Shown here: one piece after another, positions 32,277 through 59,683 of the stretch | Layout: each line of letters begins with the position of its first letter | How positions within the stretch are numbered: the first letter of the stretch is position 1 | Source of the DNA: an uncultured Ruficoccus sp. | GTDB taxonomy: Bacteria; Verrucomicrobiota; Verrucomicrobiia; Opitutales; Cerasicoccaceae | Length of the DNA: 64,000 bases | NCBI GenBank assembly: GCA_965140785.1 | Contig: OZ223481.1 | Coordinates: 576,001-640,000 of the forward strand | Direction of reading: 5' to 3' | Notes under the pieces: model-generated | Database searches by the model: none | The model's input: the letters and a program-made list of their open reading frames with translations, nothing else | Told to the model about the DNA's origin: nothing | Program-made: the position numbers and the translations under genes

Positions 32277-32446
32277 GACCTAAAAAGTCACTAGGATTTT
32301 TGTCCAGTTGAGGCTATTCAGGGCAAATTCAGGGAATGCTTAAAAATCGAAAAATATCGATTAAATGCCTGATATGCAGAGGTTTACGCCTAAAATAGCA
32401 TGGTGCGAGCGGAGGGAATCGAACCCTCATCTCAGGCTTGGGAAGC
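32277..32446. repeat. Left att site: 46-bp tRNA-Gly 3' half (32401-32446) plus ~125-bp near-copy of the integrase-side arm
   Basis: 32401-32446 is identical to 59609-59654; 32277-32400 closely matches 59475-59608. Confidence 0.92.
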
Positions 32447-32610
32447 GGCCGGACACCCGCATTGTTGTGAGGAATTGTCGATTAGGTCACTAAAAAGTCA
32501 CTAGAATTTTTGACGAGCCTTCTCTCGCGTCTAGTGACTTTTGCGCATTTTGGGCGCCTCCGAATCCGGGTTCGAATGACGTGATTTCGCGGCAATGCAC
32601 ACAGCTTGAA

Positions 32611-33087
32611 TTACTCCCCCAATTTCTCGCGGATGGCCTTGAGCTTTTGGATGGTCTGCCGGTCTTTCTCCCGGTTCATTGCGCTCTTGGCCTTGATCAG
32701 CCCGTCGAAGTCGAGGGTGCGCACGGAACCGAAAACCAGCCGGATCTCCCGGGCGTACTCAAGCACAATATCATAATCGCCGAGCCCCAGAATCGACCCG
32801 AGGCAGTCCAGGGCTCCCAGGTCCGTGAGCAGGTAGAGGTTTTTGATGGAATCGGCGGTGAAAGCCTCGCGGTTGAGCGCGGGTTTGTTGGGATGCATCC
32901 GGTAGCGGGGATGCAGGTCCTCGATCGCGTCATAGAGTCGGCTTAAATTCTCGTCCCCGAGCCGGACGCAGACATCCAGGTCTTGGGTGAGCAGGTCACT
33001 ACCCAAAATCATGGACGCGTACCCGCCTACGATGATGAACTCAACGCGGTGGTCATGAAACCGCCTCAATAGCGTCAGAAAGTCCAT
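32611..33087 (-). CDS. Minimal nucleotidyltransferase-like protein (putative TA component)
   Basis: FIIVGGYA, TQDLDV (DxD), LIKAKSAMNREKD. Confidence 0.75.
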   Translation of the reverse strand: MDFLTLLRRFHDHRVEFIIVGGYASMILGSDLLTQDLDVCVRLGDENLSRLYDAIEDLHPRYRMHPNKPALNREAFTADSIKNLYLLTDLGALDCLGSILGLGDYDIVLEYAREIRLVFGSVRTLDFDGLIKAKSAMNREKDRQTIQKLKAIREKLGE

Positions 33088-33265
33088 GGATTTGCTTCAG
33101 GGCCGCTCTGCGCAAAGCCATAGCCTGGGATATAGCCCGGTCGTGACGGACGCAGCGTTCCTGGTAGGAAAGCTCGAGGTTGGCTTCGATCAGGGACATG
33201 TCGCACCCCTCGTCCTGAGCTTGCTCCCAGGCACTTGTTGATGGCAGGCGATCTTCCCCTTTCAT
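33053..33265 (-). CDS. Small partner protein of the nucleotidyltransferase
   Basis: 70 aa, overlaps the NTase start; DMSLIEANLELSYQER. Confidence 0.6.
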   Translation of the reverse strand: MKGEDRLPSTSAWEQAQDEGCDMSLIEANLELSYQERCVRHDRAISQAMALRRAALKQIHGLSDAIEAVS

Positions 33266-33635
33266 TACTACTTACTCTATACGAACGAGGCCATCAGGCA
33301 AGTTCAACCGCATGACGTATTTACAAAAGAGCGCCCTTGCGTCACTAATATGGCTACGGAAGCCAGGAAAATCCACGCTCTGAAATCCGAGCACAAGAAA
33401 TTGATAGCCCTTTATGAAGAGCCCACTGAGCGCTCGATCTACCGACACGGCTTCCTGGATGCCCTCGAAGCGGCGGCAATGGTGGATGGGGTGGGGTGAG
33501 CGTACGCGCTATTTTTCAGGTTAAATGAATTCGTGGGCCCTTTGCATTGCTTGAACTCATATTCGGGGATTGGGTTGAGGCAGAAATCTTTTGATAGACC
33601 GCAGTCGGAGAACGCAATAGAACACAGATATTATC

Positions 33636-36125
33636 ATGCCCCGGAAAGCGACCGCACACAAACCCGCGAAGCCAAAAGGAAAAGCCAAGCAACCTCGTGA
33701 TCTGTTTATTTTAGGCTTTGATGCAGAGTGGGTCCGGGATCGCGAGAACGTGAACGAAAACCGCATCCTGAGTTATCAGTGGTATGTTATCAATGGAAGT
33801 AAACGAGGTGGGGGCCTGTTTCTTACGAGAGAAACGGGTCGCCTGGGTTTCGCAAAGTTCATTTCTCTCAGTCTTGAAGATGCCAAGCAGCAGGCGTTGT
33901 TTAAGCACTACCCTGAGACCGTTATTCTTGTGTCCCACTTTACGCGTGCAGACCTGAGTTCATTCAGTGATTACCATAGTGTACTCAAGAAATCTTTCGA
34001 TAACGTCCGTAAAAGCTATACCAGCTTAGGGACCACCTACAAGGTTACCTTGACGGACAGCAATCGGAACCAACGTAAGATTGACGTCACGCTGAGGGAT
34101 ACGATGCATATCGCTCCCGCCGGAAGTTCGCTGGAAGCGTTGGGTGAATTGCACAAAGTGAAAAAAGTTACCCTGCCGGCGGGTGCTATTGAGCATATGG
34201 ATGAACTTCTGGAGACGAACCCGGAGTTATTCAAACAATATGCTGTCAGGGACGCGGAGATTACGGCCCTACATGCACTGAAGATGGCGGAATCCTCCGA
34301 AAAGATGTTTGGTGAACGTGAAGTACCGATCACCCTGGGCGGGATGGGGGTGAAATATTGTCAGCATTTATGGCGTGCCAATGGGATGACCCCCTTGAGG
34401 GTTCTGGGACAGCACGAGGTCGCTAGGACATTCTTCGATGAGAAAACCCGCCGCCGAAAGAAGGTGAAGGAAATTCAGTTTATTCCTGAAGTGTCAGCGT
34501 CTGAAAACCTTGTCATTGATGCCTATCATGGTGGTCGAAATGAATCCTTTTTCTTTGGGGCGACGCCTGAAGATGATTGGCGGGATATCGATTTGAAAGG
34601 AGCGTATTCGACGGCTATGGCCACGATTCGTCAACCCGTCTGGAAGCGTGTCGAGCACACGACGGACGTTGACCGTTACGATCTCGATACCATGGGGTTT
34701 GCTTACGTTTATTTCGTTTTCCACCAGGAGATGCGATTTCCTGGACTACCTGTGAGGCACGATGGCAGTCTCTTTTTCCCTCGGGAGGGGCGGACCCATG
34801 CAACTGCTTCAGAAATCGCGTTGGCCCGTCTGCAGGGTGCTAGGGTTGAAGTGTTGGATGGAGTTGTCGTACCTTTAGAGCAGGATAACTACCCCATCCG
34901 CGAGATCGTACTGAAGGCAACGCAGTCCCGCAATAACGCGAAAACGACACTTGAGAACAAACTCTATAAGGAGTTGATCAATTCGTTCTACGGGAAATTT
35001 GCGCAGGGGCTAAGGCGTAGCCGTGGGTTGAATACGCGTTCAGGGGAGATTGAGGATTTGCCGCCGTCGAAAATTACGCAGGCATATTTTGCGGCGCATA
35101 TCACCGGACTTGTACGAGCGGTTCTTAGTGAGATCATGAACCGCATTCCTGAGAAATACGATGTAATCAGCGTGACGACGGACGGCTTCATTACCAACGC
35201 GCCTGAAGAGGTGACGGCGGAAGCCTCTCAAGGACCTATTAGCGCAATTTTCAAGCAAGCTCGCGGGATATTGACGGGTAGCGACGATAGCATCTTGGAA
35301 GAGAAACATCGCGTTCGGCAGGTTCTCTCGTGGGCAACAAGGGGGCAGGCAACGCTTAAATCGGCTGATGGGGGAAAGGCCATTTTAGCTAAAGCAGGAA
35401 TTCAGGCTCCGAGAGAGTTGAGCGCGGAAGGCCAGAACCAATGGGTCGTGGACCTGTTCAAGAACCGTGACGAGAATAGTAAGCTGGAGATAACGCAACT
35501 CAAAGGAATGAGTGCTATGTACCATGAGGAGTCCGGTGGGTTGGTCGATTTGCATAAAACCCGCTCGTTGCAGATGGATTTTGATTTTAAGCGTCAAGTT
35601 AATCATCATAAAAAGGGGATGCGAGCCGTTGATGGGATGGATCATGTATGGTTTAAAACATACCCTTGGCAATGCATAGACGACTGCGTTCGTGCCCGGA
35701 ATACGATTCAGCGTTTCCGTAGCGAGGAGAAGCGATGTCTAAAAACGCTTGATGATCTGTATCATTTCCAGCGATGCTACGAAGCGACCGCACTTCCTGG
35801 AGGATTCAACCGTACACGAGGCGGCGGGACGGTTGATGATGCCGTTCGTGTCCTTATACGCGCGATGGTTCAGGACAAGTGGAACTTGAGCTTAAAGGGT
35901 AGAACCCACACGGAGTGGTGTGAGTGGTTTGGACAGCATGGTTATTCGGTATCCATCGATCAGTTTAAGAAAGCATCGGCCAATCCTGTCATTTCCAATG
36001 CAATAGAGCTGGGGGCTGAGGTGTCTAAACTGATCGATCTAATAAAATCAGAATTCCCTGAGTTCGATCATAACATCCTCCTTACGATGCGCCCGAAGAG
36101 TGAGGATTCGTCTGATGAGGAATGA
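33636..36125 (+). CDS. Family B DNA polymerase, primer-independent type (piPolB)
   Basis: ExoI FDAEW, ExoII HFTRADL, ExoIII YAVRD; YHGGRNE; motif A DLKGAYST; motif B KELINSFYGKFAQG; motif C SVTTDGF; KH...TRGQ. Confidence 0.88.
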   Translation: MPRKATAHKPAKPKGKAKQPRDLFILGFDAEWVRDRENVNENRILSYQWYVINGSKRGGGLFLTRETGRLGFAKFISLSLEDAKQQALFKHYPETVILVSHFTRADLSSFSDYHSVLKKSFDNVRKSYTSLGTTYKVTLTDSNRNQRKIDVTLRDTMHIAPAGSSLEALGELHKVKKVTLPAGAIEHMDELLETNPELFKQYAVRDAEITALHALKMAESSEKMFGEREVPITLGGMGVKYCQHLWRANGMTPLRVLGQHEVARTFFDEKTRRRKKVKEIQFIPEVSASENLVIDAYHGGRNESFFFGATPEDDWRDIDLKGAYSTAMATIRQPVWKRVEHTTDVDRYDLDTMGFAYVYFVFHQEMRFPGLPVRHDGSLFFPREGRTHATASEIALARLQGARVEVLDGVVVPLEQDNYPIREIVLKATQSRNNAKTTLENKLYKELINSFYGKFAQGLRRSRGLNTRSGEIEDLPPSKITQAYFAAHITGLVRAVLSEIMNRIPEKYDVISVTTDGFITNAPEEVTAEASQGPISAIFKQARGILTGSDDSILEEKHRVRQVLSWATRGQATLKSADGGKAILAKAGIQAPRELSAEGQNQWVVDLFKNRDENSKLEITQLKGMSAMYHEESGGLVDLHKTRSLQMDFDFKRQVNHHKKGMRAVDGMDHVWFKTYPWQCIDDCVRARNTIQRFRSEEKRCLKTLDDLYHFQRCYEATALPGGFNRTRGGGTVDDAVRVLIRAMVQDKWNLSLKGRTHTEWCEWFGQHGYSVSIDQFKKASANPVISNAIELGAEVSKLIDLIKSEFPEFDHNILLTMRPKSEDSSDEE

Positions 36126-36151
36126 GAAACAGGTAACGTTTGGACCCTCAA

Positions 36152-36260
36152 AAACTACGAAAATCGGACGTTTTTCGTAGTTTATTTGCGTCGATTGTTG
36201 TTTGTAAGTACTTGCTTATAAGTATATAATGGAATAGGTTCCGTAACCGGGTATGGGTAT
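36152..36260. repeat. Bipartite cis-element, copy 1 (hairpin + CGTAACCGGGTATGGGTAT)
   Basis: AAACTACGAAAA/TTTTCGTAGTTT stem at 36152-36183; 19-mer at 36242-36260; recurs at 55131-55240. Confidence 0.8.
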
Positions 36261-36370
36261 ACCCGAACCATGTTAGCGCACCAGCCTCCCTCGCATAGTT
36301 TCTAGACGCATTAGGCTAGTTCCAGTTCTTGCTGATGTTGTAGGCGATGACACTCAGAACCCTTGTGCGT

Positions 36371-37006
36371 TTACCTGAAATTCCGCTCTGCCATTTTGGG
36401 TACGAGCACCACCGAAAATGCTTTGCTGACAAATATTCTTAGATGGTAACCCTTTTGGACGGATGAGTACTCCCAGTAGGAAGGGATTCGTTTGTTGGTA
36501 AAGTAGTCCGTCCTGTACTTTACGTTTAGCTCAGGGATACCGTAGGAGCTCATGAATAATTTCGCGAAATCACGTCCTGTGAGGTCTGCTACTTTAAAGA
36601 GGTGGTTGACGCCTTCCTCGGTAAGCATGAAACCGATAACAACATTTTCGTAAACATAGACTGCGCCGTAATTTACCCCGTTTACTTCAAATTGGTTAAT
36701 GATCTGTGGACTATGCCCGATGGGAAAGACGAAATCCGGTGGAATATCCTGTTTCAAATACTTGATGTTCCCCTCGACAACTTGATTCAGTTGGCTGGTA
36801 AACTCTCTTGCCGCCATGCCGGGGTATAGCCCGTGGACGATCAAGCCTGCGCTATACTCGGGTACATAAAAGCGAGAGTCAGGTATGGATTGCCTGGTCC
36901 CTCCTTCATCGGGATTTTCCGTTTGAGCCGTGGCAACGGATACAACATTCATGATGCCGATAAGCAGGGCGAGGTGCAGGGTTACATTAGGCAGTAGGTT
37001 TTTCAT
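36371..37006 (-). CDS. Hypothetical secreted protein
   Basis: 211-aa ORF with signal peptide, coupled to the upstream gene. Confidence 0.65.
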   Translation of the reverse strand: MKNLLPNVTLHLALLIGIMNVVSVATAQTENPDEGGTRQSIPDSRFYVPEYSAGLIVHGLYPGMAAREFTSQLNQVVEGNIKYLKQDIPPDFVFPIGHSPQIINQFEVNGVNYGAVYVYENVVIGFMLTEEGVNHLFKVADLTGRDFAKLFMSSYGIPELNVKYRTDYFTNKRIPSYWEYSSVQKGYHLRIFVSKAFSVVLVPKMAERNFR

Positions 37007-37458
37007 TTTGTGGGCTTTATTTTGATTAAATCGTGTATGTCAGGCTGCCTATGGATGCGGACCGCTAACACGGTGATTGGCAGCCGAAAGCTCTCCGTAA
37101 CCTGTTCCAGGCGCAGCAGGTATTTTTCGTCGGAGGGACTTTCGATAATCAGGATGATGACCGCCTGGTTCCCTGACTCCGCCGCGTAGTTCAGGCTTTG
37201 TCCAATGGCCTCGGCCCACTTGTCCGCGAACTCCACCTCGATCGCGTACTTATCTGTCAGGATGTCGCAGCGGGTTCCGTTGGGAAGAACGACTTCGGTA
37301 TGACCATCCAGAACGCCCGCCGCCTGCTCCTGATAGTAAGACTCGGGATTTTTACGTGCCGCTTCCAGGGATGTGACTGCCAGCAGAAGGGGAAGGAGGT
37401 ACCTCAGCCGCAGGTACTGGAACAAGCGCTCTGGCGGTATTTTAAAGCCGTTTCGCAT
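37003..37458 (-). CDS. Hypothetical protein, possible PD-(D/E)XK-like fold
   Basis: EVVLPNGTRCDILTDKYAIEVEF..KWAEAIGQSLNY; hydrophobic N-terminal segment. Confidence 0.6.
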   Translation of the reverse strand: MRNGFKIPPERLFQYLRLRYLLPLLLAVTSLEAARKNPESYYQEQAAGVLDGHTEVVLPNGTRCDILTDKYAIEVEFADKWAEAIGQSLNYAAESGNQAVIILIIESPSDEKYLLRLEQVTESFRLPITVLAVRIHRQPDIHDLIKIKPTK

Positions 37459-37697
37459 GTTTAAAGTCGATTCGCATGTCTTGCGGGCCGGGTCAGTGGA
37501 GCGGGGATCTACCTTGCGGGTGTAGCCGGTTGAGCGGTTCGAGGTCGTGGTGGCAGATTTTCGGATGGTGTGCGGTTATGGAGGCGTGATCCGGGCATGA
37601 ATGCACAATCACCTCATGATCATGGGGTCTGTGTGTCAATTAAAAACCTTACGTTCATGGGGTGTCCTGCCGAACCCTGCGCTCGTATGGTGGTCGG

Positions 37698-37910
37698 GTG
37701 AATAATTCTCTGACGGAACTGGGCGATCGCCTGCGGGCATTACGGGCCAAACACGGCCTCACGCAGGAGGAATTTGCCCAACTGGCTGGCATCGGCTACA
37801 AGTTCTACCAGCAGATCGAGGGAGCGCGTAAAAAGGAGATCTGGCTCTCGACCGTCGAACGTCTCGCCGCCCCCTACGGCCTGCGCGCCTGGCAACTCCT
37901 GGCTCCCTGA
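37698..37910 (+). CDS. XRE-family HTH regulator
   Basis: LRALRAKHGLTQEEFAQLAGI..YQQIE. Confidence 0.85.
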   Translation: MNNSLTELGDRLRALRAKHGLTQEEFAQLAGIGYKFYQQIEGARKKEIWLSTVERLAAPYGLRAWQLLAP

Positions 37911-38138
37911 CATGCCCGAAGATTCCAAGCTGACCCGCAAAGTCCCCAGCAGCCGGGTGCATCGGGGGTAGGCTAAATCAAACGCGAAATTCGAGAGGGA
38001 GGTTGATACGAAATCCCTCAACCTCTTCGGTCTGCCCGGACGAATAGTCTAGATCATGCTGAATTCGGTACTTCGAATAAGTTTTGAACTATCAATATAT
38101 ATCTTGCAGATGCTATGTTATCACCCTGTAATACAGTG

Positions 38139-38290
38139 ATGCCTATTACTGAAAGCTTACCGGATCTCGTTAAGTCCGTGCGAAAACAGCTAGGACTGAG
38201 TCAAGAAGGCCTGGCGAGGGAGATTGGTGTCAGTTTTTCAAGCATTAGCCGGTGGGAAAGCGGCAAAACGGCACCCATGCCCCTGCAACG
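38139..38290 (+). pseudogene. XRE HTH regulator, probably truncated
   Basis: VRKQLGLSQEGLAREIGVSFSSISRWESGKTAP, then similarity is lost next to a transposase remnant. Confidence 0.65.
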
Positions 38291-38364
38291 GAGACAGTCT
38301 AAAGGAACGCCTGGGGGAGGAGGCGAGGGTCCGGATTGCGGCGACCACGTTTTCGATCTATGCC

Positions 38365-38490
38365 TTCGAGGCTCTTTGAGAATGCGATTTTCCTCCAACA
38401 GGTAGTCGATGACTGTCTGCTGTTTACGCCCCTGACCACTCGGCCAGCCCAGTAGAAATGTCAGTAGAGCTGTAAATTGTGTATCCAAAG
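38365..38490 (-). mobile_element. Transposase N-terminal remnant
   Basis: LLGW..KQQTVIDYLLEENRILKE, resembling the N-terminus of integrase-core transposases. Confidence 0.5.
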
Positions 38491-38877
38491 TAACGTATTC
38501 TGTTTTTCTGCAATTAGTTATCAAACATAGGTTCTCTATCTGAGGATCATGAGGTTGTATGGGGCAGAATCGAAATTGTCGTAATTATCAAACCTTTCTA
38601 CGCTTTGATTCCCATCCTTGGATCTTCAATGACAAGGTTTATGACGGATTACTGATCGACAGTTTTGTAGTCATAGCTTCTGTCTGTCGTTTTTTTTTGC
38701 GAGTCGTCGAGGGTAGAGAATATGCAACACTCTTAGTCGTTGTTTTTAGTCGCAACGTTCTTGTATTCATTGATTTGAATTGGTTCAGATTTAAAACACT
38801 TTCCAGTCCTGAGCTACTTTTGTATATTTTCACAATCAACTTCCGTTTATGTATTGTTTAACCTCATCACAAATATC

Positions 38878-39909
38878 ATGAGAATCTCTATGCCTTACTC
38901 GTATAAAATATTGTCTAGCCGTAGCCGAATGGTCTTAGTCACGGCTTTCTTTGCTTTTTCTGCGTTCTCTGTTAAGCTTGATGCGGCATTGCTGGCCTAT
39001 GAATCTTTTGATTATGGCCAGAGTAGCAGTAATCTTAACCTAGTTTCCGAGAGTCAGCGTCAAACCGGACTGGGCGGGACGTGGAATTCAGTTCCCGGAT
39101 ACAACATTCCTTGGTACAATGCCGGATCGAGTCTTTCGTTTGGCTCCCTGCAGACATTTGGCGGTCACATCGCTCAGTCGACCAGTACGGCTAACGGGCG
39201 GGCAAAGGTTCCGCTGGGCGTCGATACAAAAGGGACGACCGGAACTATATACCTGAGCTATCTGTTCCGCGCCGAGCCCTACGGCGGGGCAGAGTATAAT
39301 CCAGGGGTTGCGGCCTATGTCTCGCTCAATTCCTCCTCGTTCTTTGGCTCTTCGCAGGCCATATCGGATACAAGCGGCGTGCTTACTACGGATGCCCGAT
39401 ACAGCAATATCATTGCCTCCAGCGGATTGTATGGGGCCTCGAATGCAGATTTAAGAGCGCTGCAGGCATCTACAACCTACATGGTTATTACCGAATTTAC
39501 AAACGTTGGGTTGCCGCTTACCGGAGGCAACCCGGGGGTTGCAACGATGTGGGTGCTTACTTCTGCGCAGTACGACTACTTCATAACTAGTGGAGCCACG
39601 ACAGAGGCGCTGAATGCGGCGTCTATCGGCAGCGATGCCGACTCTGTCTTCTCTCGCGGTAGCGCACCCAAGTCCAGCGGTACCTGGACTCTGGCCGAGG
39701 ATGCATCCCTGACTGTTTATATGCATCCTTCTGTAGACAATTACTCAGCCTCTGTCGGTGCATACTTCCGCATGGATGAGATCCGGCTTGCGACAACGTT
39801 ATCCGATGCATTAACCGGTACGGTTGTTATTCCGGAGCCATCGGCCGTCGCGTTTGGAATCGGAGTCATTGCTCTAGTTGCGGCTGTTATGCGCCGCCGC
39901 CGCTCCTGA
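38878..39909 (+). CDS. PEP-CTERM surface protein
   Basis: Signal peptide, LLAYESFDY, MDEIRLAT, IPEPSA + TM + RRRR. Confidence 0.9.
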   Translation: MRISMPYSYKILSSRSRMVLVTAFFAFSAFSVKLDAALLAYESFDYGQSSSNLNLVSESQRQTGLGGTWNSVPGYNIPWYNAGSSLSFGSLQTFGGHIAQSTSTANGRAKVPLGVDTKGTTGTIYLSYLFRAEPYGGAEYNPGVAAYVSLNSSSFFGSSQAISDTSGVLTTDARYSNIIASSGLYGASNADLRALQASTTYMVITEFTNVGLPLTGGNPGVATMWVLTSAQYDYFITSGATTEALNAASIGSDADSVFSRGSAPKSSGTWTLAEDASLTVYMHPSVDNYSASVGAYFRMDEIRLATTLSDALTGTVVIPEPSAVAFGIGVIALVAAVMRRRRS

Positions 39910-40007
39910 TCTTCATCCGATTATTATGTACACAGATTTCCGGCCAGACTTGTCTGTGCTGGCCGGGAATCATTTATCTTCCCCGTCTGATTTGAAAAAA
40001 TACGATC

Positions 40008-40733: not shown

Positions 40734-40805
40734 TAGGTGTAGTGTATGATCTGATAGATATCGGAGTAACGATATTCTATGTTCTAATTAAAATTATTTT
40801 ATATC

Positions 40806-41837: not shown

Positions 41838-41848
41838 ATTTTATTGTT

Positions 41849-42607: not shown

Positions 42608-42625
42608 GGGAAATGCCGAATGAAA

Positions 42626-49348: not shown

Positions 49349-49404
49349 TGCGGGTCAGGCCTGCGATGTGCTGCATCTCTGATGCTGCGTTGTTGCCGGT
49401 AGCA

Positions 49405-50466: not shown

Positions 50467-50495
50467 AATCCCCTTTGATATGTATTTATATGCAG

Positions 50496-51579: not shown

Positions 51580-51626
51580 CAGCTTAATATTGCGATTTTA
51601 AAGGAATAAATCGCTGGTTTGATTGC

Positions 51627-52117
51627 TTAACTTATACGGAATTTACGCCTATAGGATTGCGGGGTAAGACCAATGACTTTTTTGAATCCGCGGTTGAAGT
51701 GGGCGCTGTCGGCAAATCCCAACTGGTGGGCAATCTCTGAGGATGTCGCGTTGCTGGAAAGCAGGCGGCGGCATGCGCGATGAATCCTTCGGCGTTGGAA
51801 ATAATCGCTGGCAGTCAGTCCTGTAGTCATCTTAAAAAGTCGACAGAAGTGTGATGCGGATGCTCCAGAATGGGAGGCAATCATTTTCATATCGGGCGTT
51901 TCTCCGGTACGTACCGGTCGTTCGATTTCCAGTAGTCCGCGCATGACGGAATCGGGCCATGCTCTGCTGGCTGTTGCATTGAACTCGCGTACGTAGGAGC
52001 GAATCATGCGGATCAGGCACTTAAGAAAGCAGGCCTCAAGGAACAGCGTCTGTCCGTCGGGGGAATCGCCCTTGCGTTGAAGTTGTTGAAAGTCGACAAG
52101 ACATTCGTCTAGCTGTC
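51627..52117 (-). pseudogene. AraC regulator, 5' part removed by IS3 insertion
   Basis: LGFADSAHFNRGFKKVIGLTP; the frame runs into the IS3 left end. Confidence 0.8.
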
Positions 52118-53162
52118 TGAGCCTCCCGAAAGTGGTCCATTGCTGATGAGATGATTTTCTGTCAGATGACAGATAATCGAGTATGAAACGAGGAAGACGA
52201 AGCACCGAAGAGATCATCCGCATCCTTCGCGCGAGCGAAGGGCTAAACGTCGAGGATGCCTGCCGCGAGCACGGTATCAGCACGGCGACGTACCATCGCT
52301 ACAAGCGCCAGTATGGGGGGTTGGATGTGAAGGAGGCACAGCGGCTACGGGACTTGGAGAAGGAGTTCACGAGCGTAGCGAGAAGGCCTGACACTCCGAG
52401 TTGAAGAAGCTGCTTGCCGACCAGTTGCTCAAGACCAAAGCCCTTGAGATTGCGTTGGAAAAAAACGCCTGAGCCCGGATCACCAGCGCGGGGCGGCCGC
52501 CAAGGTCGTCGCCGCGCTTCGGTGCTCCGGGAGACAAGTGTGCCGGTGGCTGGACATTCATCGATCAACCTATCGTTACCAACCCAAGCCGCTGCCCGAG
52601 AAGAAGCGGCTGCTCGAAGCCCAGATCGTGAAGATGAGCCAAGGTCACGCGCAAACTGCGAGAGGCCGGTTGGGCCGTGGGCAAGAAGCTGGTGCAACGC
52701 GTACGTCGACAAGAGGGCCTGCAAGTGCCTGCTCCTAAACCACGCACACGTCGTCAGGGCTTGTCGACCGGACTGCCGCAGCAGGCCACGCATCGCAACC
52801 ATGTCTGGGCCTGGGACTTCGTCTCCGACCATACTCAGCGCGGCGGCGCCCTGCGTTGCGTTAACCTCATCGACGAGTTTACGCGGGAGTGTCATTGCAT
52901 CCATGCGGATCGCTCGATCAAGGCCGATGATGTACTCGCCGTGCTCAAGCAGGCAATCGCCACCCATGGCGCGCCCGAGTATATCCGCTCCGATAATGGG
53001 CCTGAGTTTATCGCCAGGCCCATTAAGCGCTGGTTGGCCGACAACCAGATCAAGACGCTCTATATCGATCCGGGGTGCCCTTGGCAGAATGGCTACGTCG
53101 AATCCTTCAACAGCCGCTTCCGGCAGGAGTGTCTGGATCGCGAACTGCTCTATACCCTCAGC
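52118..53162 (+). mobile_element. Degenerate IS3-family element (orfA/orfB)
   Basis: TG-start left end; orfA HTH at 52183; A-run slippage site near 52460; orfB WAWDF, RSDNGPEF, PWQNGYVESFN; internal indels; 3' end cut by IS66 end. Confidence 0.85.
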
Positions 53163-53442
53163 GTAAGCGTCACGTGTAGCACCATCGGATATGGCTTGTC
53201 TTGGCCCTTGTGGTCGTATGTGGGCGAGCTACGACGGTTATGACAGTTACGACTCAGGCTGCGTGCGGCGCTGTGAGCCGTTTGCTTTTGGCAATGGCGA
53301 CAGGAGTCATACTCGGGATGCGTCGAGTGGTGGCAGCCGGGAGGGTTTTGAGCAGGAAGAGGATGTAGGGGTCGAGGCCGTGTCGCTTGGCGGACTCGAT
53401 GAGGGTGGAGAGGATGGCGGAGGTTTCCGAGTCGATCATCAT
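53163..53442 (-). mobile_element. IS66-family right-end remnant
   Basis: GTAAGCGTC terminus; STLIESAKRHGLDPY TnpC C-terminal motif. Confidence 0.7.
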
Positions 53443-53446
53443 ATCC

Positions 53447-53555
53447 CAGCTAAAAGTAAAGTCCCCCCTCTTGCTGCCCCTGCATACGAGGCGAGTACGG
53501 AAGGGGAGCTTTTCTGGGAATGTAAACCATGGTTTACACTTTGGTGGTCGGCATG
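53447..53555. repeat. ~105-bp direct repeat, copy 1 (contains palindrome TGTAAACCATGGTTTACA)
   Basis: Near-identical to 54189-54293. Confidence 0.9.
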
Positions 53556-53630
53556 CTGACCCAAACGTAGAAGTGCAATTAACATTTAAATTATTGACAT
53601 GACCCCTTCCTCTCCTGCAATGACACTGTT

Positions 53631-54067
53631 ATGACTACCGATAGGTTTGAAAAAAAGCTCTTCGAGAAGTAAAAAAAGAACAACCGGATTTTCAAAAAGC
53701 AGTTCGGATTCTAGAAGAAGGCATAGCCTTGGGGTCGGGTGAGTGCTCTTACGCGCTGGGAACGTGGTACCTTCATGGCGAACATGTCAAAAAAAACATG
53801 AGACGTGCAATATCTCTGTTGAGAATAGGGGTAAAGTGTGGAATTGCAAATGCTTGCTACGATTTAGCAGTATGCTATGAAAATGGAGCCGGTGTAAGGA
53901 AAAATTTATCCAAAGCATTTGAGTTATATACATTGGCAATGTTAAATGGAGATAAGCAATCGATTATGGAAATTGGGAGGTGTTTCTATTATGGGATAGG
54001 AGTTGAGGTAAATAGGAAGGTCGCTAGAGTATGGCTTGATCACGCCAATGCGTTAGGTCTAAAATAG
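53631..54067 (+). CDS. SEL1/TPR-like repeat protein (AT-rich; 1-nt frameshift in an A-run near the start)
   Basis: YALGTWYLHG, YDLAVCYENGAGV, EIGRCFYYGIGV repeats. Confidence 0.8.
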
Positions 54068-54188
54068 AGGCTTACAAGCAGACAGCATTCTTGTGGTGCA
54101 GCCACAGTTTCAGCTTCTCTTGTGCATGTTGGCGGGTTGGATGAATCGCCAACAGCAGCAGCTGATCGAGTATTTTCAGGTGGTGCGT

Positions 54189-54293
54189 CAGCTAAAGAAA
54201 AGCCCCTCTTGCTGCCCCTGCATACGAGGCGAGTACGGAAGGGGATCTTTTCTGGGAATGTAAACCATGGTTTACACTGTGGTAGTCGGCATG
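54189..54293. repeat. ~105-bp direct repeat, copy 2
   Basis: Near-identical to 53447-53555; lies just downstream of the DUF932 gene. Confidence 0.9.
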
Positions 54294-54330
54294 TCTTGGC
54301 ACTCTTGAGGGCGCGGGTGTCCGCTTCTGC

Positions 54331-55101
54331 TCAGTTCAGCCCTAAGGTTTTGTCGAGGAGTTGGTGGAGGCGGTGGGTGCGTTCGGGGAGGAGGCCGATG
54401 CGGCCCTTGAAGACCTCGGTGAAGGCGTTCTGGAGGCTCCAGGCGGTGCGGGGCTTAAAAACCTCATGCCGGGGGTGGCGCCATTCGTGCAGGACTTTGG
54501 GGATGTACCCGTTGGCCATGACACCGGCATCCACAGCGCGGATGATGAGGTCGTGGGCGCAGCGGTCGTTGAGGCGGACGCGGCGGTAATAATCGACCCG
54601 CCGGTCGTGTCGGTCCCAGTAGCGTTTGAGGCCCGCGACAGCATCCATGGCCAGCGCGGGCAGGTCTTGAAGGATGCGCGGGGTGTGTTTGCGAGCGAGT
54701 TGTATCTCCCCGGAGAAAGAGAGATTGTCGCAGACGAGGACTTGGCTTCCGGCAACGACCCCGGCGGAGAAGCGTTGGTCATGGCTGTTGCGCACACCGA
54801 CGACGTAGTTGTATTCGAGTCCCGATACGTGGGCGTCGATTTCGAGCAGGCCAAAGTACCGGGCGCGGTCATGGGTGAGCCCGTGGGCCTGTCCGGCGAC
54901 GGTAAAACCCTGTTCGAGCAAGGCGATCTCGACGACCTGCAAGAGCTGGATGTGCGGAATGGGCCTCCACGTGCGGGTGGCACGGGGCGTTTCGGTCTGG
55001 GCAAGTTCGCTCAGGCTGATGGCATGGCTACCGTGGTGCAGGAGCAGGTTGCAGCGCTTGGGAGCGGCGGGTGAGACGGGTTCGAGGGTGTCTGTGATCA
55101 T
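54331..55101 (-). CDS. DUF932-like protein
   Basis: TRTWRPIPH, GVRNSHD, VLVCDNLSFSG, RKHT, TAWSLQNAFTE. Confidence 0.78.
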   Translation of the reverse strand: MITDTLEPVSPAAPKRCNLLLHHGSHAISLSELAQTETPRATRTWRPIPHIQLLQVVEIALLEQGFTVAGQAHGLTHDRARYFGLLEIDAHVSGLEYNYVVGVRNSHDQRFSAGVVAGSQVLVCDNLSFSGEIQLARKHTPRILQDLPALAMDAVAGLKRYWDRHDRRVDYYRRVRLNDRCAHDLIIRAVDAGVMANGYIPKVLHEWRHPRHEVFKPRTAWSLQNAFTEVFKGRIGLLPERTHRLHQLLDKTLGLN

Positions 55102-55130
55102 GGTTTTTGTGGGTTGGATTTGAGGGTTAA

Positions 55131-55240
55131 AAACTACGAAAAATGTTCGATTTTCGTAGTTATTGGAAAATGCTTACCAGCCTGCATGGTCGATGAATAA
55201 AGGCCCCGTTCGTCGCGGTGTCGTAACCGGGTATGGGTAT
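55131..55240. repeat. Bipartite cis-element, copy 2
   Basis: AACTACGAAAA/TTTTCGTAGTT stem at 55132-55161; identical 19-mer at 55222-55240. Confidence 0.8.
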
Positions 55241-55374
55241 CCCAGATGGCTTTTACGGCACCGGGCGGCATCGGTGAGGTGGGCAGGCTGATGGAGGGTG
55301 CGGGAAAAGACAAAAACCCCGCCCCGGTGGAAGGGCCGGAGCGGGGCTGTATTGACCTGTCATGACATGCAGGC

Positions 55375-55611
55375 TCAGCGGTAGCGTTCGCGCTCCCGTT
55401 CGTACTCGGGGTATTCCGGCATGAAGGGCGAACGCCTCACGGCCCCCACTGCGTAGCCGATGGCCCCGATGAGGACGGCCACGGAGATGACCAGGAACGG
55501 ACTGAGTGCTTCCTTGGCCTCGTTGACGGCTCCGATGGCTACGGGCCCCACAAGCGTCCCGACGCTGTAGGCCGTGAGCGCGACGAGTGCGAGCTTAAGG
55601 ACGGCATTCAT
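55375..55611 (-). CDS. Small membrane protein
   Basis: 78 aa, two hydrophobic segments, overlaps the upstream gene. Confidence 0.6.
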   Translation of the reverse strand: MNAVLKLALVALTAYSVGTLVGPVAIGAVNEAKEALSPFLVISVAVLIGAIGYAVGAVRRSPFMPEYPEYERERERYR

Positions 55612-55867
55612 GGTCGGGCGGGTTGCGGGGATTGTTCCTGGCCGGGAGGTACGGAGCCCGATGCTTATACCGGGCCGCCCGTACGAGGCTGCTTCCCCAG
55701 ATCAGTGAGCAGGCGACCGAACAGCCCCCGACCCAGTACAGGGCATGAACCAGGGGAAGGAGGGACGGCTGCTCGACGGGTGGAGGCGCGGGTGGCTCGT
55801 CGTGGTCGTTGAGCATGAAGAGGCCCGCCCCCAGGCTGAGCGCGGCGATTATGATGGTCTGGATCAT
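55595..55867 (-). CDS. Small membrane protein
   Basis: Start overlaps the nuclease stop (ATGA); two hydrophobic segments. Confidence 0.6.
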   Translation of the reverse strand: MIQTIIIAALSLGAGLFMLNDHDEPPAPPPVEQPSLLPLVHALYWVGGCSVACSLIWGSSLVRAARYKHRAPYLPARNNPRNPPDHECRP

Positions 55868-56685
55868 CGCTCGCCTCCCGTCCATTTCGCGCACCGGGAA
55901 CGGAAGCTGCACCAGGCGCAGTGCATCCCCGGCTGCGGGTGGAAACGCTCGTGGTAGATGCCGTCCACCGCCGCGCAGGCGATGTCGAGCACGCGTTGCT
56001 TTTCCTTATCGGTGGCCGCAGGGAGTCGGTGGACGATAACCTTTGGTTTCTTGGTTTTCACGAGGAAGACCAGTTCGCGTCCCTCGACGTGTTCGTCGGT
56101 GGCCGATTCGATCAGCAGTTGGTAGAGCGTGAGCTGGACCTCGTGCTGGAAGGCTTCGAGCTGGACATCCGGTGTGCTCGCACAGGTCTTGTAATCGACC
56201 GGCACGTTGCCCGGACGCACGAGGTCAATGTAGCCGAGTACCGGGCTGGGAATCGCCGGCAGGTCCTCCTCCAACTGGACCTCGACGCCCAGCGGAAGCT
56301 CCTCCATCCGTCCATGGTCGGAGTCCAGGTAAGCTTCGACGATGGCAACGCCTTTGTCGTGGTTGGTCTGACGTGTATTCGTATTTGGATACGAGGCGGC
56401 CTCTGCCGGCGCATTAAACGCCGCCGTGAAGGCCTTGAGCACCGTCTCCTTGTCATGGCACTCGCCGCGCCAGCGAGCGCGGTGGAAGTGCTGGAGGGCG
56501 GCATGGACAGCCTTGCCCAGGTGCAGGCTGGGTGAGATCGGTTCGGGCAGCTTGAGGACTTTTTTGTACCAGAACTTCAACGGGCAGGTCAGGTAGAGCT
56601 TGATCGAGCTCGCGGAGATGTGGGCGAGCAGGCCGTCGGTCGATGGCTGCTGGCCGTTGCGGTTGTGTTCGAGCGGCTGGATCAT
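55864..56685 (-). CDS. PD-(D/E)XK nuclease (RecB/Cas4-like, probable Fe-S cluster)
   Basis: ISASSIKLYLTCP, GKAVH, GYIDLV..VDYKT, QLTLY, HCAWCSFRSRC. Confidence 0.88.
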   Translation of the reverse strand: MIQPLEHNRNGQQPSTDGLLAHISASSIKLYLTCPLKFWYKKVLKLPEPISPSLHLGKAVHAALQHFHRARWRGECHDKETVLKAFTAAFNAPAEAASYPNTNTRQTNHDKGVAIVEAYLDSDHGRMEELPLGVEVQLEEDLPAIPSPVLGYIDLVRPGNVPVDYKTCASTPDVQLEAFQHEVQLTLYQLLIESATDEHVEGRELVFLVKTKKPKVIVHRLPAATDKEKQRVLDIACAAVDGIYHERFHPQPGMHCAWCSFRSRCAKWTGGER

Positions 56686-57155
56686 GAGCGTGCCCTTCCT
56701 TTGGTCGGGCCGTAGGTGCCGATCAATTCGTCGATCAGCCCCGAGGCCTGCATCTTGTTCAGGTGCGCGAGCGGGGCGCGGAAGCGGCTTTGGGCCAGCT
56801 CCTCCAGTGCGTCGCGGGTGATGCCGTGGTCTTTCATCAGCCGTTCGATCAGGCCCTTTTGTTTGAGGGAGCAGGCCCATTCTCCCGGCTGACGGTTGAC
56901 GTTTACCCGGCCCGGCGGGACTCCCATGGAGATCGCCGGTGACGGGGCTCCAGTTCGGGGCGGGGAGGGGAGGAATCCGGTTTGCTGGATGTCCCGGTCC
57001 ACCGCGTCCTGGAGTTGCCGATACAGGTGCGTGCTGGCTTCGTGGATGTGCGCGAGGTCGTTGACCTCCGTGCGCACGGTGATCGAGTATTGATGAGATG
57101 AATACGCGGGCAGCCCCAGTTTTTTCGAGTAGTTGGCTTCGAGCGTGATCGCCAT
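56682..57155 (-). CDS. Hypothetical backbone protein (YSKKLGLP motif)
   Basis: Good RBS (AAGGAA); ATGA-coupled to the nuclease. Confidence 0.7.
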   Translation of the reverse strand: MAITLEANYSKKLGLPAYSSHQYSITVRTEVNDLAHIHEASTHLYRQLQDAVDRDIQQTGFLPSPPRTGAPSPAISMGVPPGRVNVNRQPGEWACSLKQKGLIERLMKDHGITRDALEELAQSRFRAPLAHLNKMQASGLIDELIGTYGPTKGRARS

Positions 57156-57186
57156 AATGGTTCCTTTGCTTGCGACCGTGCAGGTA

Positions 57187-57222
57187 CAAAAAAGCCCGGC
57201 GAGGGGTCGGCTCGCCGGGCTT
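57187..57222 (-). terminator. Terminator-like hairpin upstream of the backbone operon
   Basis: AAGCCCGGCGAG/CTCGCCGGGCTT stem with a minus-strand T-run. Confidence 0.55.
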
Positions 57223-57613
57223 CTGATAGCGGGTCAGTCCGCCATCATGGATATATAGCGCACTTGCGGGTTTTATTGCAGGACGAGGGCAGTTCGATTG
57301 GGCCTGTTTGGTTGAGGTGTCAAAAACCGCAGTATCCGATGGTTAATCGCCTGTGGGCCAGCTCAGGATTTTTTCGTTAAAAACAAATGGTTAACTTTAT
57401 CTTGTTTTTGGAAATGCCTGTCGCGTCGGAAGGGGGGTGTGTTGCGCCTCATTTGTCATTTTTTTTGGCCCACTTTCACGGGGAAAAAGGGCCTTGCTCG
57501 CGAAATTGGACCCTTGTTCGGGATCGATTCGACCTTGCTCAGGTTTTCCAATGGCCGGTTTTCGGGAGCGTTGTGGAATTGCATTTACGGGCGGCAGGCG
57601 TCAAAACTTCTGG

Positions 57614-58033
57614 ATGGCTCCTGATGAGTTGACGCCGCCCTATCCCTTTTCCCACAGAACAAGTCCCGAAGATCTGCGGGCCTATCATGAGGCAATGGAA
57701 CGGGATGCAGTCACCTCGCTTTTTCGGAGATGGGCTCAAGAAGAGGAGGCCCGGGATGCCGAGCTTGAGCGCAAGGAGCAGGAGCAACTCGTGAAGCGCG
57801 AACTGCAAGACACGCTGCGTAAGCTGGCAGATAATAGCGACGCGATGAAGACCGCCTCCGCGTTGAATCATAAAATCTGGATGGGACGGCAGGAGGCTGC
57901 GGACTATCTGGGGATTTCAACACGGACGCTCGACCGAAAGCGGGAAACGGGGACGCTACGTGGCTATCTCGTGGAGGGGACGAAAGCTTATCGTTTTAAG
58001 CGTTCAGATTTAGACGCATTGATGGAGGGCTGA
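57614..58033 (+). CDS. Excisionase-like HTH protein
   Basis: WMGRQEAADYLGISTRTLDR..YRFKRSDLDALM; convergent with the integrase. Confidence 0.82.
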   Translation: MAPDELTPPYPFSHRTSPEDLRAYHEAMERDAVTSLFRRWAQEEEARDAELERKEQEQLVKRELQDTLRKLADNSDAMKTASALNHKIWMGRQEAADYLGISTRTLDRKRETGTLRGYLVEGTKAYRFKRSDLDALMEG

Positions 58034-58058
58034 AGGGACTGACGCTTCGGCTTGTGTA

Positions 58059-59432
58059 TCAAGTAGGCGTAGGTTCCTTTCGGCTCCAGTGTCCGCGTGG
58101 CGTGGATTTGAGGCCGAGTTTTTTGAGGTGTTTCCTGACCGCTTGATCGGAAACGCCCAAGGCGCAGGCGATATGGGTGACGGGTTGCTGCTTGACCAGC
58201 ACTTTCAGATCTTCACGCGACGGCCAGTCGGCCTTGTGTGCATGGGGATCGACTTTGCGTTGTAGCGTGTAGGTAGTCTGGGAGGGAGTGATAGCGAAAA
58301 AGGCTTTTCCCGCGGCATTCGGGGCCATGCCCTTGTAAAACTCCTCCAGCGTCTGTTGGCTGCGGTGGCCAGTCCATCCGCAGACTTTTCCGGGGTTGGA
58401 GGTGAAGGCGACCCCATAAGTGGCAAAACTGTGACGGGCGGCATTGTGGGGATACTGGATACCGGCGCTTACGCAAAGCCGATGACGGCGTCGATCGAGG
58501 TTCTGCTTGTCCAGCATGACATGGCTGTTGTCGTCCAGGAAGGGCTTTAGCCAAGACCAGAGCGTACCGGGCAGCTTCTCAATGTAGCGAGGGAGCGGGC
58601 GTCCCTTGCGCTTTCTCTTGGCTACCTCGGGGCGTATGTTAATCGCCTTGTCCTCAACATGAATGTCCTCGGGGGAGAGGCGTTTGATTTCCTCGGTCCT
58701 GATTCCGGCGAAGAAGGCCAGAGCCAGGCAGGGGAGAAGACCAGGGTCTTTCTTTTCGGCCTCGCGGAAGAGCTTTTCGACATCGTCAACACGGAGGAAC
58801 TCCTTGGCCGGCGCATCTTCGCGTTTGTATTCGAGGGCTTCCGCAGGCGAGTTGGAGATGAAGCGGAACTGCCGCTTGGTACACCATTTGAAAAACGTCT
58901 TATAGGCGCGAAGGTAGTTGTTGTAGGTTGTGTCGGAGAAGGGGAGGTCGTCCAGGAGCTCTTCGAGCATTTCGGGTGTAATATCCCGGATGGGTAATGT
59001 GCCGAGCGATTCACTGAGAAGGTTGAAGGTGGATTTCATCCCGGCGACCGTCGTATCCCGAAAATCCGGATAGGCCTTGTCTTCGTACTGCTTGAGCGCG
59101 TCGGTGAGGGTGATCCCTTCGTCCTGGGGATGCCTTTCAATCCAGAACTTAGCGGCGTCTCGCAGGTCAATATCCTTCAAGATGGCTTTTGCCTCCCGGT
59201 ATTCTGCCAGTTCCGCCTGGGTCAGGTTTCCGCTGATTCCCAGCTCCTGATGGGTCTGTCTTTGTTGCCGGAGCCAGGCCTCCGCCGCCCCTTTGGTGGC
59301 AACGGTTTTCTCCTTTTGGGCATAGATGCGTTTGCCCGTTGGGGAAAGGCGCGTCGTAGGGATTTGCGCCCGGGCTTTCCACTTACCATTCGGCAGTTGG
59401 CAGGGGTTGGGCCGGGTAGGAGAGGCGGTCAC
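58059..59432 (-). CDS. Tyrosine integrase of the tRNA-Gly element
   Basis: FAGIRTEE, HNAARHSFATY, GH......FY; lies next to the tRNA. Confidence 0.92.
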   Translation of the reverse strand: MTASPTRPNPCQLPNGKWKARAQIPTTRLSPTGKRIYAQKEKTVATKGAAEAWLRQQRQTHQELGISGNLTQAELAEYREAKAILKDIDLRDAAKFWIERHPQDEGITLTDALKQYEDKAYPDFRDTTVAGMKSTFNLLSESLGTLPIRDITPEMLEELLDDLPFSDTTYNNYLRAYKTFFKWCTKRQFRFISNSPAEALEYKREDAPAKEFLRVDDVEKLFREAEKKDPGLLPCLALAFFAGIRTEEIKRLSPEDIHVEDKAINIRPEVAKRKRKGRPLPRYIEKLPGTLWSWLKPFLDDNSHVMLDKQNLDRRRHRLCVSAGIQYPHNAARHSFATYGVAFTSNPGKVCGWTGHRSQQTLEEFYKGMAPNAAGKAFFAITPSQTTYTLQRKVDPHAHKADWPSREDLKVLVKQQPVTHIACALGVSDQAVRKHLKKLGLKSTPRGHWSRKEPTPT

Positions 59433-59608
59433 ATACCTAGTGAATCGAACCCGCCTCGATTTTTCAAGTCACTAGACCTAAAAAGTCACTAGAAGTCACT
59501 AGGATTTTTGTCCAGTTGAGGCTATTTGGGGCAAATTCAGGGAATGCTTAAAAATCGAAAAATATCGATTAAATGCCCGATATGCAGCGACTTACGCCTA
59601 AAATAGCA

Positions 59609-59683
59609 TGGTGCGAGCGGAGGGAATCGAACCCTCATCTCAGGCTTGGGAAGCCCACATAATAGCCGTTATACGACGCTCGC
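59609..59683 (-). tRNA. tRNA-Gly (CCC)
   Basis: GCGAGCG acceptor stem, TTCCCAA anticodon loop, GGTTCGATTCC T-arm, encoded CCA. Confidence 0.93.

Follow-up and report, generated by a model that had tools for sequence, protein, structure and literature searches.

Pipolins, the integrative elements that encode a primer-independent family-B DNA polymerase (piPolB), have been studied nearly only in Gammaproteobacteria and Gram-positives, and the accessible text of the 2024 survey casts them as defence islands (Mateo-Caceres & Redrejo-Rodriguez 2024; PMC11551731). The survey also reports that recombinases have been replaced, that tyrosine recombinases target tRNA genes outside Gammaproteobacteria, and that the elements follow a bimodular plan in which a core is joined to a cargo of defence genes. 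According to the available parts of both papers (PMC5695915, PMC11551731), the enterobacterial pipolins of the Escherichia coli 3-373-03_S1_C2 type combine a piPolB with a tyrosine recombinase, are inserted at tRNA gene 3' ends between att-like direct repeats and have a size near 20-30 kb, with a small core and exchangeable cargo. All of this is shared by the locus described here, which lies in a 64-kb stretch of contig OZ223481.1 (positions 576,001 to 640,000; hereafter the window, with coordinates counted from its first letter). We put at roughly 0.88 the probability that the segment 32447-59654 is an integrated pipolin with a primer-independent-type family-B polymerase. A pipolin had been proposed from the letters of the window without database searches (the sequence-only reading), and it agrees with the polymerase motifs, with sequence similarity, tree and fold and with the anatomy of the island. 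We consider the locus a genuine pipolin that appears to be complete, in a host that probably belongs to the Verrucomicrobiota.

Verrucomicrobial piPolBs had already been recorded, and the sequence-only reading overrated the novelty of the locus. In the accessible part of the PMC11551731 supplement the string 'verrucomicrob' appears at least 12 times, together with entries for Limisphaerales, Spartobacteria and 'Ruficoccus sp. ZRK36' (the protein called P0002 below). The main text of that paper never mentions the phylum, and a literature search returned nothing combining 'pipolin' with 'Verrucomicrobia'. As this lineage is present there as a supplement entry only, it can be regarded as catalogued but undescribed. 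PolB was found in 3 of the 41 genomes of a sample of relatives and in 5 of 401 genomes of the phylum (the window genome, G000, is included in both counts, and one of the five has only a 94-amino-acid (aa) fragment), the phylum figure being of the same order as the prevalence of about 0.9% given for bacteria in the accessible text of PMC11551731. Two of the genomes compared, G001 and G002, belong to the same genus as G000.

The polymerase

The polymerase gene (33636-36125, plus strand) is an intact, stop-free open reading frame (ORF) of 829 aa matching PF03175 in Pfam with an E value of 9.5e-13. Its exonuclease motifs (ExoI FDAEW at 28, ExoII HFTRADL at 101 and ExoIII YAVRDAE at 202) and polymerase motifs (PolA DIDLKGAYS at 317, PolB KELINSFYGK at 445 and PolC SVTTDG at 512-517) can all be read, and the active-site residues D29/E31, H101...D106, Y202...D206, D317/D319 and K445...G453 are present in alignment columns that show no variation across all 62 homologues aligned. 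The hallmarks of piPolBs are a PolC motif SxTTDG replacing YxDTDS, in which the first catalytic Asp has become Thr, and a KH-X8-KTRG motif replacing KxY (PMC5695915). The SVTTDG of the window polymerase conforms to the first of them, and xxTTDG is found in 110 of the 120 homologues listed, whereas Bam35, phi29 and PRD1 have YCDTDS and no KH-X8-KTRG-type motif. As for the second hallmark, the window polymerase reads K557-H558-X8-A567-T-R569-G, retaining the KH, the spacing and the TRG with the first Lys changed to Ala. The sequence-only reading was therefore right in describing an intact 829-aa PolB with all Exo and Pol motifs, including the TTDG of motif C and the HFTRADL of ExoII; the second hallmark is to be read as ATRG, not KTRG. 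Among the 120 listed homologues the first residue of this motif is K or R in 112, and because RTRG occurs 88 times against 12 for KTRG, a basic residue and not Lys itself is the rule in the clade; the exceptions include the window polymerase (the one ATRG) and its nearest relative, P0002 (the one TTRG). The ATRG residues (567-570) are encoded by 35334-35345, and the PolB copy of G002 reads RTRG.

In a tblastn search against 72,556 plasmids, 45 records matched, all of them from Pseudosulfitobacter, Staphylococcus or Fusobacterium, and the polymerase of the plasmid pipolin pSE-12228-03 of Staphylococcus epidermidis was matched with E 9e-34, the alignment covering 85% of the query with an identity of 25%. 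The same search against 50,697 phage records matched only four Bam35-like tectiviruses (best E 6e-4). The relationships were explored in a tree of 36 rows, made of the window polymerase, 26 of the 80 other piPolB loci compared (hand-picked across taxa), four homologue proteins, two plasmid piPolBs and three phage protein-primed PolBs, by an IQ-TREE quick search with LG+G4 over 830 columns and SH-aLRT support; piPolBs of Vibrio, Aeromonas and Photobacterium stood in for that of E. coli, which was not in the alignment. The 33 piPolB rows were split from the three protein-primed PolBs with a support of 99, so the window polymerase grouped with piPolBs in the phylogenetic comparison that the sequence-only reading had named as a check. 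It fell within 31 Gram-negative piPolBs (support 97) and, inside them, in a seven-row subclade with five rows labelled Verrucomicrobia (support 99), where it was paired with P0002 (support 100). The nearest polymerases are those of Ruficoccus sp. ZRK36 (P0002, 73% identity) and Verrucomicrobiota bacterium JB024; together with the Verrucomicrobia-titled clade and the flanking proteins, which combine DUF1559 with an N-methyl domain, they are consistent with the verrucomicrobial host that the sequence-only reading had supposed.

An AlphaFold model built from 62 sequences (pLDDT 91.1, pTM 0.84) found phi29 polymerase as its top PDB match in Foldseek, with E 3.7e-17 and a TM score of 0.67 over the 570-aa target, against about 0.35 for archaeal PolBs. 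In the model, a beta-hairpin at 463-474, between motifs B and C, lies at the position of phi29 TPR2, and an insert of about 118 aa between motifs A and B lies at that of TPR1. The polymerase would accordingly be predicted to have TPR1 and TPR2 insertions, subdomains that are placed by their position alone. Motifs, similarity, tree and modelled fold indicate that the polymerase is a piPolB.

With phi29, Bam35, PRD1 and casposons this polymerase shares its Pfam family and, in the model, a phi29-like fold with inserts at the TPR1 and TPR2 positions. A protein-primed PolB, the island then being a casposon, a linear plasmid or a tectivirus-like provirus, could be suspected from the fact that PF03175 includes protein-primed PolBs too, from the best fold match being phi29 polymerase and from the Cas4-like nuclease of the island. 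However, its motif is SxTTDG, not YxDTDS, the Bam35 match (E 6e-4) is far weaker than that of the pipolin plasmid polymerase (E 9e-34), and the tree splits it from the three protein-primed PolBs. Moreover, protein-primed systems have YCDTDS, a terminal protein gene beside the polymerase and linear genomes, none of which was seen in the window, where the ORFs upstream of PolB are of 49, 70 and 158 aa. We searched 32 ORFs with Pfam, 16 ORFs left unassigned with NCBIfam and PHROGs, and used PADLOC for defence genes; the Pfam, NCBIfam and PHROGs scans gave no capsid, terminal-protein, relaxase or type IV secretion system, or Cas1 family, which bears out the sequence-only reading in its statement that capsid, terminal-protein and conjugation genes were not recognised. 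In the case of a casposon, Cas1 is lacking among the 32 ORFs and the ends are tRNA-derived direct repeats accompanied by a tyrosine integrase (no dedicated search for inverted repeats was made). A protein-primed origin is thus extremely improbable.

Boundaries and history of the integration site

The window has two tRNA genes, and one of them, an intact tRNA-Gly(ccc) at 59609-59683 on the minus strand (ARAGORN; Rfam tRNA, 57.7 bits), is the integration target; an Rfam scan of 32000-60000 gave nothing but tRNA above threshold. The island occupies 32447-59654, or equivalently 32285-59492 (27,208 bp), and is inserted in the 3' part of this gene, whose 3' 46 nt (59609-59654) are duplicated at 32401-32446. 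The sequence-only reading had described 46-bp tRNA-Gly repeats, and this 46-nt tRNA copy is indeed present, but the repeat is really one of 162 nt with six mismatches (96% identity), of which 116 nt fall past the tRNA 3' end. Its left copy (32285-32446, attL side) is made up of the displaced tRNA 3' end at 32401-32446 and of the putative integrase-side arm copy at 32285-32400, and its right copy (attR side) lies at 59493-59654. The last 63 nt (32384-32446 and 59592-59654) are identical between the copies, and the homology extends to 32274 and 59472 if a 10-nt indel is allowed. There are two copies of the repeat in the whole genome, a search of which found no third copy further left that would be a sign of a tandem array.

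The 10-mer AAGTCACTAG is found six times in the 64 kb, against 0.03 matches expected, and every one of these lies at the element ends, with start positions at 32285, 32495, 32531, 59466, 59483 and 59493. Two of them are just inside the left junction (32495-32540; one at 32495-32504 on the plus strand and one at 32531-32540 on the minus strand) and are candidate arm-type sites for the recombinase or excisionase, and three are located between the integrase start and the tRNA (59466-59502, plus strand). Given the length of 162 nt and this excess of the 10-mer, a chance origin of the repeat is excluded. The GC content of the island is 53.1%, compared to 59.0% genome-wide. Furthermore, both repeat copies have the same lineage-specific base in the acceptor stem, which pairs with the 5' half of the tRNA; in G001 and G002 a G-C pair is found at this place. 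This would fit either a long residence of the element in the lineage or gene conversion.

In G002, the left flank of the island (23117-32205) matches one contig at 92% and is directly followed by the homologue of 59302-64000 at about 78%. Because the left flank, up to 32205, joins the region from 59302 directly, the 27 kb are absent in this genome, and the lack of the island at the same site in a genome of the same genus supports the reading of this segment as a pipolin. The G002 locus is not a naive empty site, as scars of an older element remain in it: the first 53 codons of an integrase (51% identity) are kept, fused to the left flank, and a PD-(D/E)XK fragment (87.5% identity at the DNA level) is kept beyond the 9.1-kb block of that flank.

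The 116-nt part of the repeat that lies outside the tRNA leads directly into this integrase remnant in G002 and contains one of the six AAGTCACTAG 10-mers; it was not found at the tRNA-Gly(ccc) loci of two other relatives (G004 and G008), and a third (G003) has only a 30-nt piece of it. We infer from these sequence comparisons that the 116 nt would be the integrase-side arm of an earlier pipolin that decayed at the same site, and that the present element would have inserted into the regenerated tRNA, with the result that core plus arm are now doubled; the crossover must have occurred within the 63 identical bases. The 162 nt could also be one long attP/attB homology from a single integration, the 116 nt being native chromosome captured by the element, with no earlier occupant. 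Long repeats comprising a tRNA end and downstream sequence occur at genomic islands, and a homologue of the 116 nt is also found downstream of tRNA-Gly(ccc) in both G001 and G002. Nevertheless, a purely chromosomal origin does not sit well with the run of the 116 nt into an integrase remnant, with the arm-type 10-mer inside them or with their absence from the G004 and G008 loci and reduction to a 30-nt piece in G003, and we regard a single integration as possible though doubtful when compared to the earlier occupation of the site.

Two observations on G002 concern its own copies of these sequences. Its PolB gene, on a 3.7-kb contig (C57, locus L006), is split into two frames just after ExoIII, at about 2200-2210, which is either a frameshift or an assembly error. 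The 9.1-kb block (23117-32205 in the window; C48 15001-24635 in G002; L017, L105 and L106), which in G002 sits between the PD-(D/E)XK fragment and the integrase remnant, is 92% identical between G000 and G002, against about 78% for the chromosome to the right of the tRNA, and it contains two GH13 amylase-like genes, an AraC/PBP regulator, a GH42-like protein of 1088 aa and a DUF1559 protein. The block looks as if it were former cargo of an older pipolin, or had moved together with it. In the remainder of the left flank and in this block (window 1-32200), no pipolin remnant was found except a fragment, at 12843-13036, of the IS30 transposase that is also present in the cargo.

Core, cargo and completeness

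At the tRNA end of the island there are, much as the sequence-only reading had indicated, an integrase and an excisionase-like gene, the polymerase gene lying at the opposite end. The first is a tyrosine integrase of 457 aa (58059-59432, minus strand) with PF00589 and SAM-like domains and a match to the phrog_1 integrase (E 4e-29), in which R245, R333, H356 and Y366 are candidate catalytic residues read by eye. The second is an excisionase-like HTH_17 protein (57437-58033, plus strand); as its HTH_17 / TIGR01764 'excise' domain is found only at residues 148-197, towards the C-terminus, the true start is probably internal.

The element follows a two-part plan, with a conserved core (PolB, two Xre regulators, DUF932, two small ORFs and the PD-(D/E)XK nuclease) and a variable cargo slot inside it. 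The left-hand core holds, beside PolB, two Xre-type helix-turn-helix (HTH) regulators at 37662-37910 and 38115-38405 (37662-38405, plus strand; HTH_31 / HTH_3), 87% and 85% identical in aa to those of G001. The right-hand core that is common to G001 starts with a DUF932 protein (54331-55101, minus strand; Pfam; 82% aa identity to G001, dN/dS 0.13), continues with two small ORFs of 78 and 105 aa (55375-55912, minus strand; 94% and 71% aa identity to G001, no family) and includes a Cas4/RecB-like PD-(D/E)XK nuclease of 441 aa (55864-57189, minus strand; PF12705, E 6e-31; phrog_69 exonuclease), 69% identical to that of G001 and 34% to that of the piPolB locus L045.

The element also contains a repeated segment. 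A hairpin followed by a conserved block is present first at 36150-36350 (hairpin 36150-36182; block 36237-36293, continuing to 36350) and again at 55129-55273 (block 55217-55273), as detected by an intra-element repeat comparison. The core of the block is CGTAACCGGGTATGGGTAT, of which there are two direct-orientation copies per element in G000 and G001, bracketing the regulators, the cargo and DUF932, and one copy on the short PolB contig of G002, 88% conserved versus about 66% for the PolB coding DNA. It is absent from the rest of the genome and from the other piPolB loci compared, so far appearing only in pipolins of this genus, and its role could be that of an operator, of a site for module exchange or of a signal for replication.

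If the element is mobile, the integrase and the excisionase would recombine the identical 63-nt cores, using AAGTCACTAG as arm sites, and release a circle, on which piPolB, by analogy with the E. coli enzyme, would start DNA without a primase and copy it by strand displacement, before the circle reinserts into a tRNA-Gly gene. To judge from their families, the nuclease and DUF932 could act in DNA processing and the Xre pair could control the switch. Because the element has no transfer genes of its own, its spread from cell to cell would have to rely on helpers or on transformation.

The cargo module, with two unknown ORFs at its start, is located at 38559-50547 (Pfam; GC 50.9%), and no close copy of it was found in 20 relatives. 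Pfam assigned to it a DUF1559/N-methyl protein (40008-40733) followed by an unknown ORF, a SIS protein (41849-42607), a glycoside-hydrolase-like protein of 1146 aa (42692-46132) followed by another unknown ORF, a GFO/IDH/MocA oxidoreductase (46887-48002), a major facilitator superfamily (MFS) sugar transporter (47972-49348) and a LacI regulator (49405-50547, minus strand). To the right of them lie an IS30-family insertion sequence (50496-51590, minus strand; transposase 50544-51521, HTH_38 and rve), multicopy in G003 and G002 at 90-91%, an AraC-type HTH ORF of 218 aa (51627-52283, minus strand; Pfam) and an IS3-family-like repeated element (52114-53243, plus strand; rve ORF 52677-53243, E 2.8e-20), which has 87% copies on contigs C25 (two) and C49 and many weaker ones. 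A Sel1-repeat ORF (53729-54067; Pfam) lies between direct repeats at 53447-53555 and 54189-54293 (the whole at 53447-54293, plus strand; repeat search); these repeats are of 105-109 nt and 93% identical, with a related copy on contig C4. PADLOC gave no defence match in the 13 ORFs of 38559-55101 that were scanned, a set from which the SIS, 1146-aa glycoside hydrolase-like, GFO, MFS, LacI, IS30 and AraC genes were left out, and its only matches within the element are Cas4-like, from the core nuclease. From the gene families, we infer that the cargo could be a LacI-controlled sugar-use (carbohydrate) cassette accompanied by two insertion sequences.

Several points weigh against an integrated, complete pipolin as described here. 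The tree, from a quick search, had only three long-branched phage protein-primed PolBs as outgroup, with no casposon, linear-plasmid or RNA-primed PolBs. A PDB sequence search with the polymerase gave no meaningful match (best E 0.06, to a ribonuclease), nor did a 14-sequence profile, and NCBIfam assigns a family neither to the polymerase nor to 13 further ORFs left unassigned. In the integrase, the catalytic residues come from a reading by eye, and the usual HxxR box is H-N-A-A-R here. Neither an excised circle nor an empty junction appeared in the assembled contigs of the likely source sample (three runs of one study), which cannot show rare forms: those of runs X1 and X2 cover 24001-44000, run X3 gave no match, and as the unitigs break inside the repeat, attB and attP junctions cannot show in them. 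A567, which replaces the first Lys of KTRG, would be equivalent to the K623A change of the E. coli piPolB, and this mutant is described in the accessible part of PMC5695915 as impaired in primer extension and in synthesis past the dinucleotide. Finally, the two insertion sequences and the truncated-looking AraC gene in the cargo hint at decay.

Some of these points would be expected of a pipolin by descent that is now fixed, being neither mobile nor self-replicating, with a polymerase that is weakened or that the host has turned to another use (damage tolerance, for instance) and a cargo built by insertion sequences. The ATRG in place of K/RTRG, read together with the impaired K623A mutant of E. 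coli, the IS30- and IS3-family elements within the cargo and the decay at the same site in G002, where only scars remain and PolB is apparently frameshifted, would speak for such a fixed island, as would the failure to see a circle or an empty site in contigs that are uninformative on rare forms. Yet every core ORF is intact, as are the arm repeats, the integrase and the excisionase are full length, the two 63-nt cores show no difference, and PolB and DUF932 are under purifying selection when compared to G001 (for the polymerase, dN is 0.20 and dS is saturated). We therefore consider fixation unlikely, and an apparently complete pipolin remains our reading of the segment.

The remaining ORFs and their relatives elsewhere can be described briefly. 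At the left end, a 158-aa ORF (32611-33087, minus strand) is DUF6036 nucleotidyltransferase-like by a weak Pfam match (E 0.002, below cut-off) and has a 39% homologue beside the PolB of locus L087. Upstream of PolB there is a 49-aa ORF or conserved stretch (33350-33499, plus strand; no Pfam match) that is 80% identical to a site on contig C8 of the same genome. Its conservation exceeds that of the polymerase gene: 33367-33491 matches the PolB contig of G002 at 88% identity, the aligned PolB DNA (34957-35353) at only about 66%. Between PolB and the Xre genes, two ORFs of 211 and 151 aa (36371-37458, minus strand) have no match in Pfam, NCBIfam, PHROGs or PADLOC, the second of them (o151) having paralogues in the genome. 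In the same genome, an HTH gene with 93% aa identity is present on C39 (at about 122 kb), relatives of o151 and DUF932 with 58-61% identity on C43 (at about 212-228 kb) and further HTH/o151/DUF932 paralogue sites on C4 and C10 (282 kb, 471 kb), and these similarities point to other mobile islands, devoid of PolB, that would share modules with the pipolin. Run X1 of the likely source sample contains diverged variants of the region of the 211-aa ORF and HTH genes (36441-36911 and 37683-37972), namely a 248-nt contig that skips 353 nt and a 2003-nt contig that matches over only 87 nt, which suggest a second related element or strain in the sample.

Comparison with other pipolins

When the 29 proteins of the element were compared with the 80 other piPolB loci, PolB alone had a match in every one of them, and the nuclease, the integrase, the DUF6036-like ORF and the GFO oxidoreductase matched one locus each. 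Among five other Verrucomicrobia-titled loci, two have a recognisable tyrosine integrase beside PolB, one of these adjoining a tRNA-Met, a third has a tRNA-Asn nearby, and one has the PD-(D/E)XK nuclease. Another verrucomicrobial observation comes from locus L033, in which a 1066-aa protein (7027-10227) with uracil-DNA glycosylase (UDG), 3'-5' exonuclease and family-A polymerase domains lies 2 kb downstream of PolB; since a protein with a family-A polymerase domain accompanies PolB, this locus would hold two polymerases.

The closest described element is that of G001, in which a 73%-identical polymerase is encoded in a 21.6-kb island with an exact 62-nt tRNA-Gly(tcc) repeat. PolB, the two Xre genes, the cargo slot, DUF932, the two small ORFs and the nuclease follow each other in the same order in both islands (69-94% aa identity), and both have a tyrosine integrase, direct repeats derived from a tRNA-Gly and the twice-repeated conserved block. 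In contrast, the G001 integrase is only 23% identical to that of the window. The G001 element targets a tRNA-Gly(tcc) gene, with respect to which it is inverted, and a homologue of the excisionase was not found in it; its cargo consists of a type III restriction-modification system, a GajA/GajB-like ATPase-helicase pair and a protein with DUF4062 and HATPase domains. Its polymerase motif is TTRG instead of ATRG, which is also the reading in P0002, a polymerase as similar to that of the window (73%) as the G001 one. The sequence-only reading had spoken of a lineage with its own backbone, and this holds with respect to the loci outside the genus, from which the element diverges, but not within the genus, as the non-polymerase core is common to the G001 element.

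Compared to the enterobacterial pipolins, the window polymerase belongs to another subclade and has ATRG instead of KTRG, and the cargo appears to be metabolic and not defensive; the UDG and DUF2787 genes that form part of the enterobacterial core, according to the accessible text of PMC11551731, were not seen in the Pfam scan of the window. In the same portion of that paper, alphaproteobacterial and actinobacterial pipolins with an IntTn916-type tyrosine recombinase are described in which replacement of the recombinase shifts the target, as between G000 and G001, and most alphaproteobacterial pipolins are reported to use serine recombinases at yifB, unlike the window. The plasmid pipolin pSE-12228-03 of S. 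epidermidis has a polymerase with SVTTDG, as in the window, and with KH-X9-KTRG, but it is a free circular plasmid of 8 kb that encodes a relaxase and a serine-type 'recombinase family protein', and it belongs to the Gram-positive piPolB group.

The window and its same-genus sister provide a cleanly delimited pair of pipolins from the Planctomycetes-Verrucomicrobia-Chlamydiae (PVC) group, which extends the known picture without changing it. This pair displays integrase replacement accompanied by a switch of tRNA-Gly isoacceptor, exchange of the cargo slot (defence versus sugar use) and scars of repeated occupation, and the natural ATRG and TTRG variants bear on the role of the first KTRG residue. 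As a tentative and rather doubtful extension, the pipolins of this genus might serve as platforms for cargo in general and not be devoted to defence, one core with its repeated conserved block taking up restriction and Gabija-like genes in one species and a LacI-controlled polysaccharide or sugar-use cassette in another. On this view tRNA-Gly(ccc) would have been colonised repeatedly, and the natural loss of the basic KTRG residue in the two closest polymerases may have shifted how priming is balanced against elongation. Should the sugar cassette be functional, this would be a pipolin carrying a metabolic trait, and if such elements are indeed cargo platforms, a self-replicating element could move a catabolic trait. 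The window fits the bimodular plan described in the accessible text of PMC11551731 in everything except the cargo, and it is unusual mainly in its putative sugar-use genes where defence genes would be expected, being otherwise a fairly ordinary member of the pipolin family.

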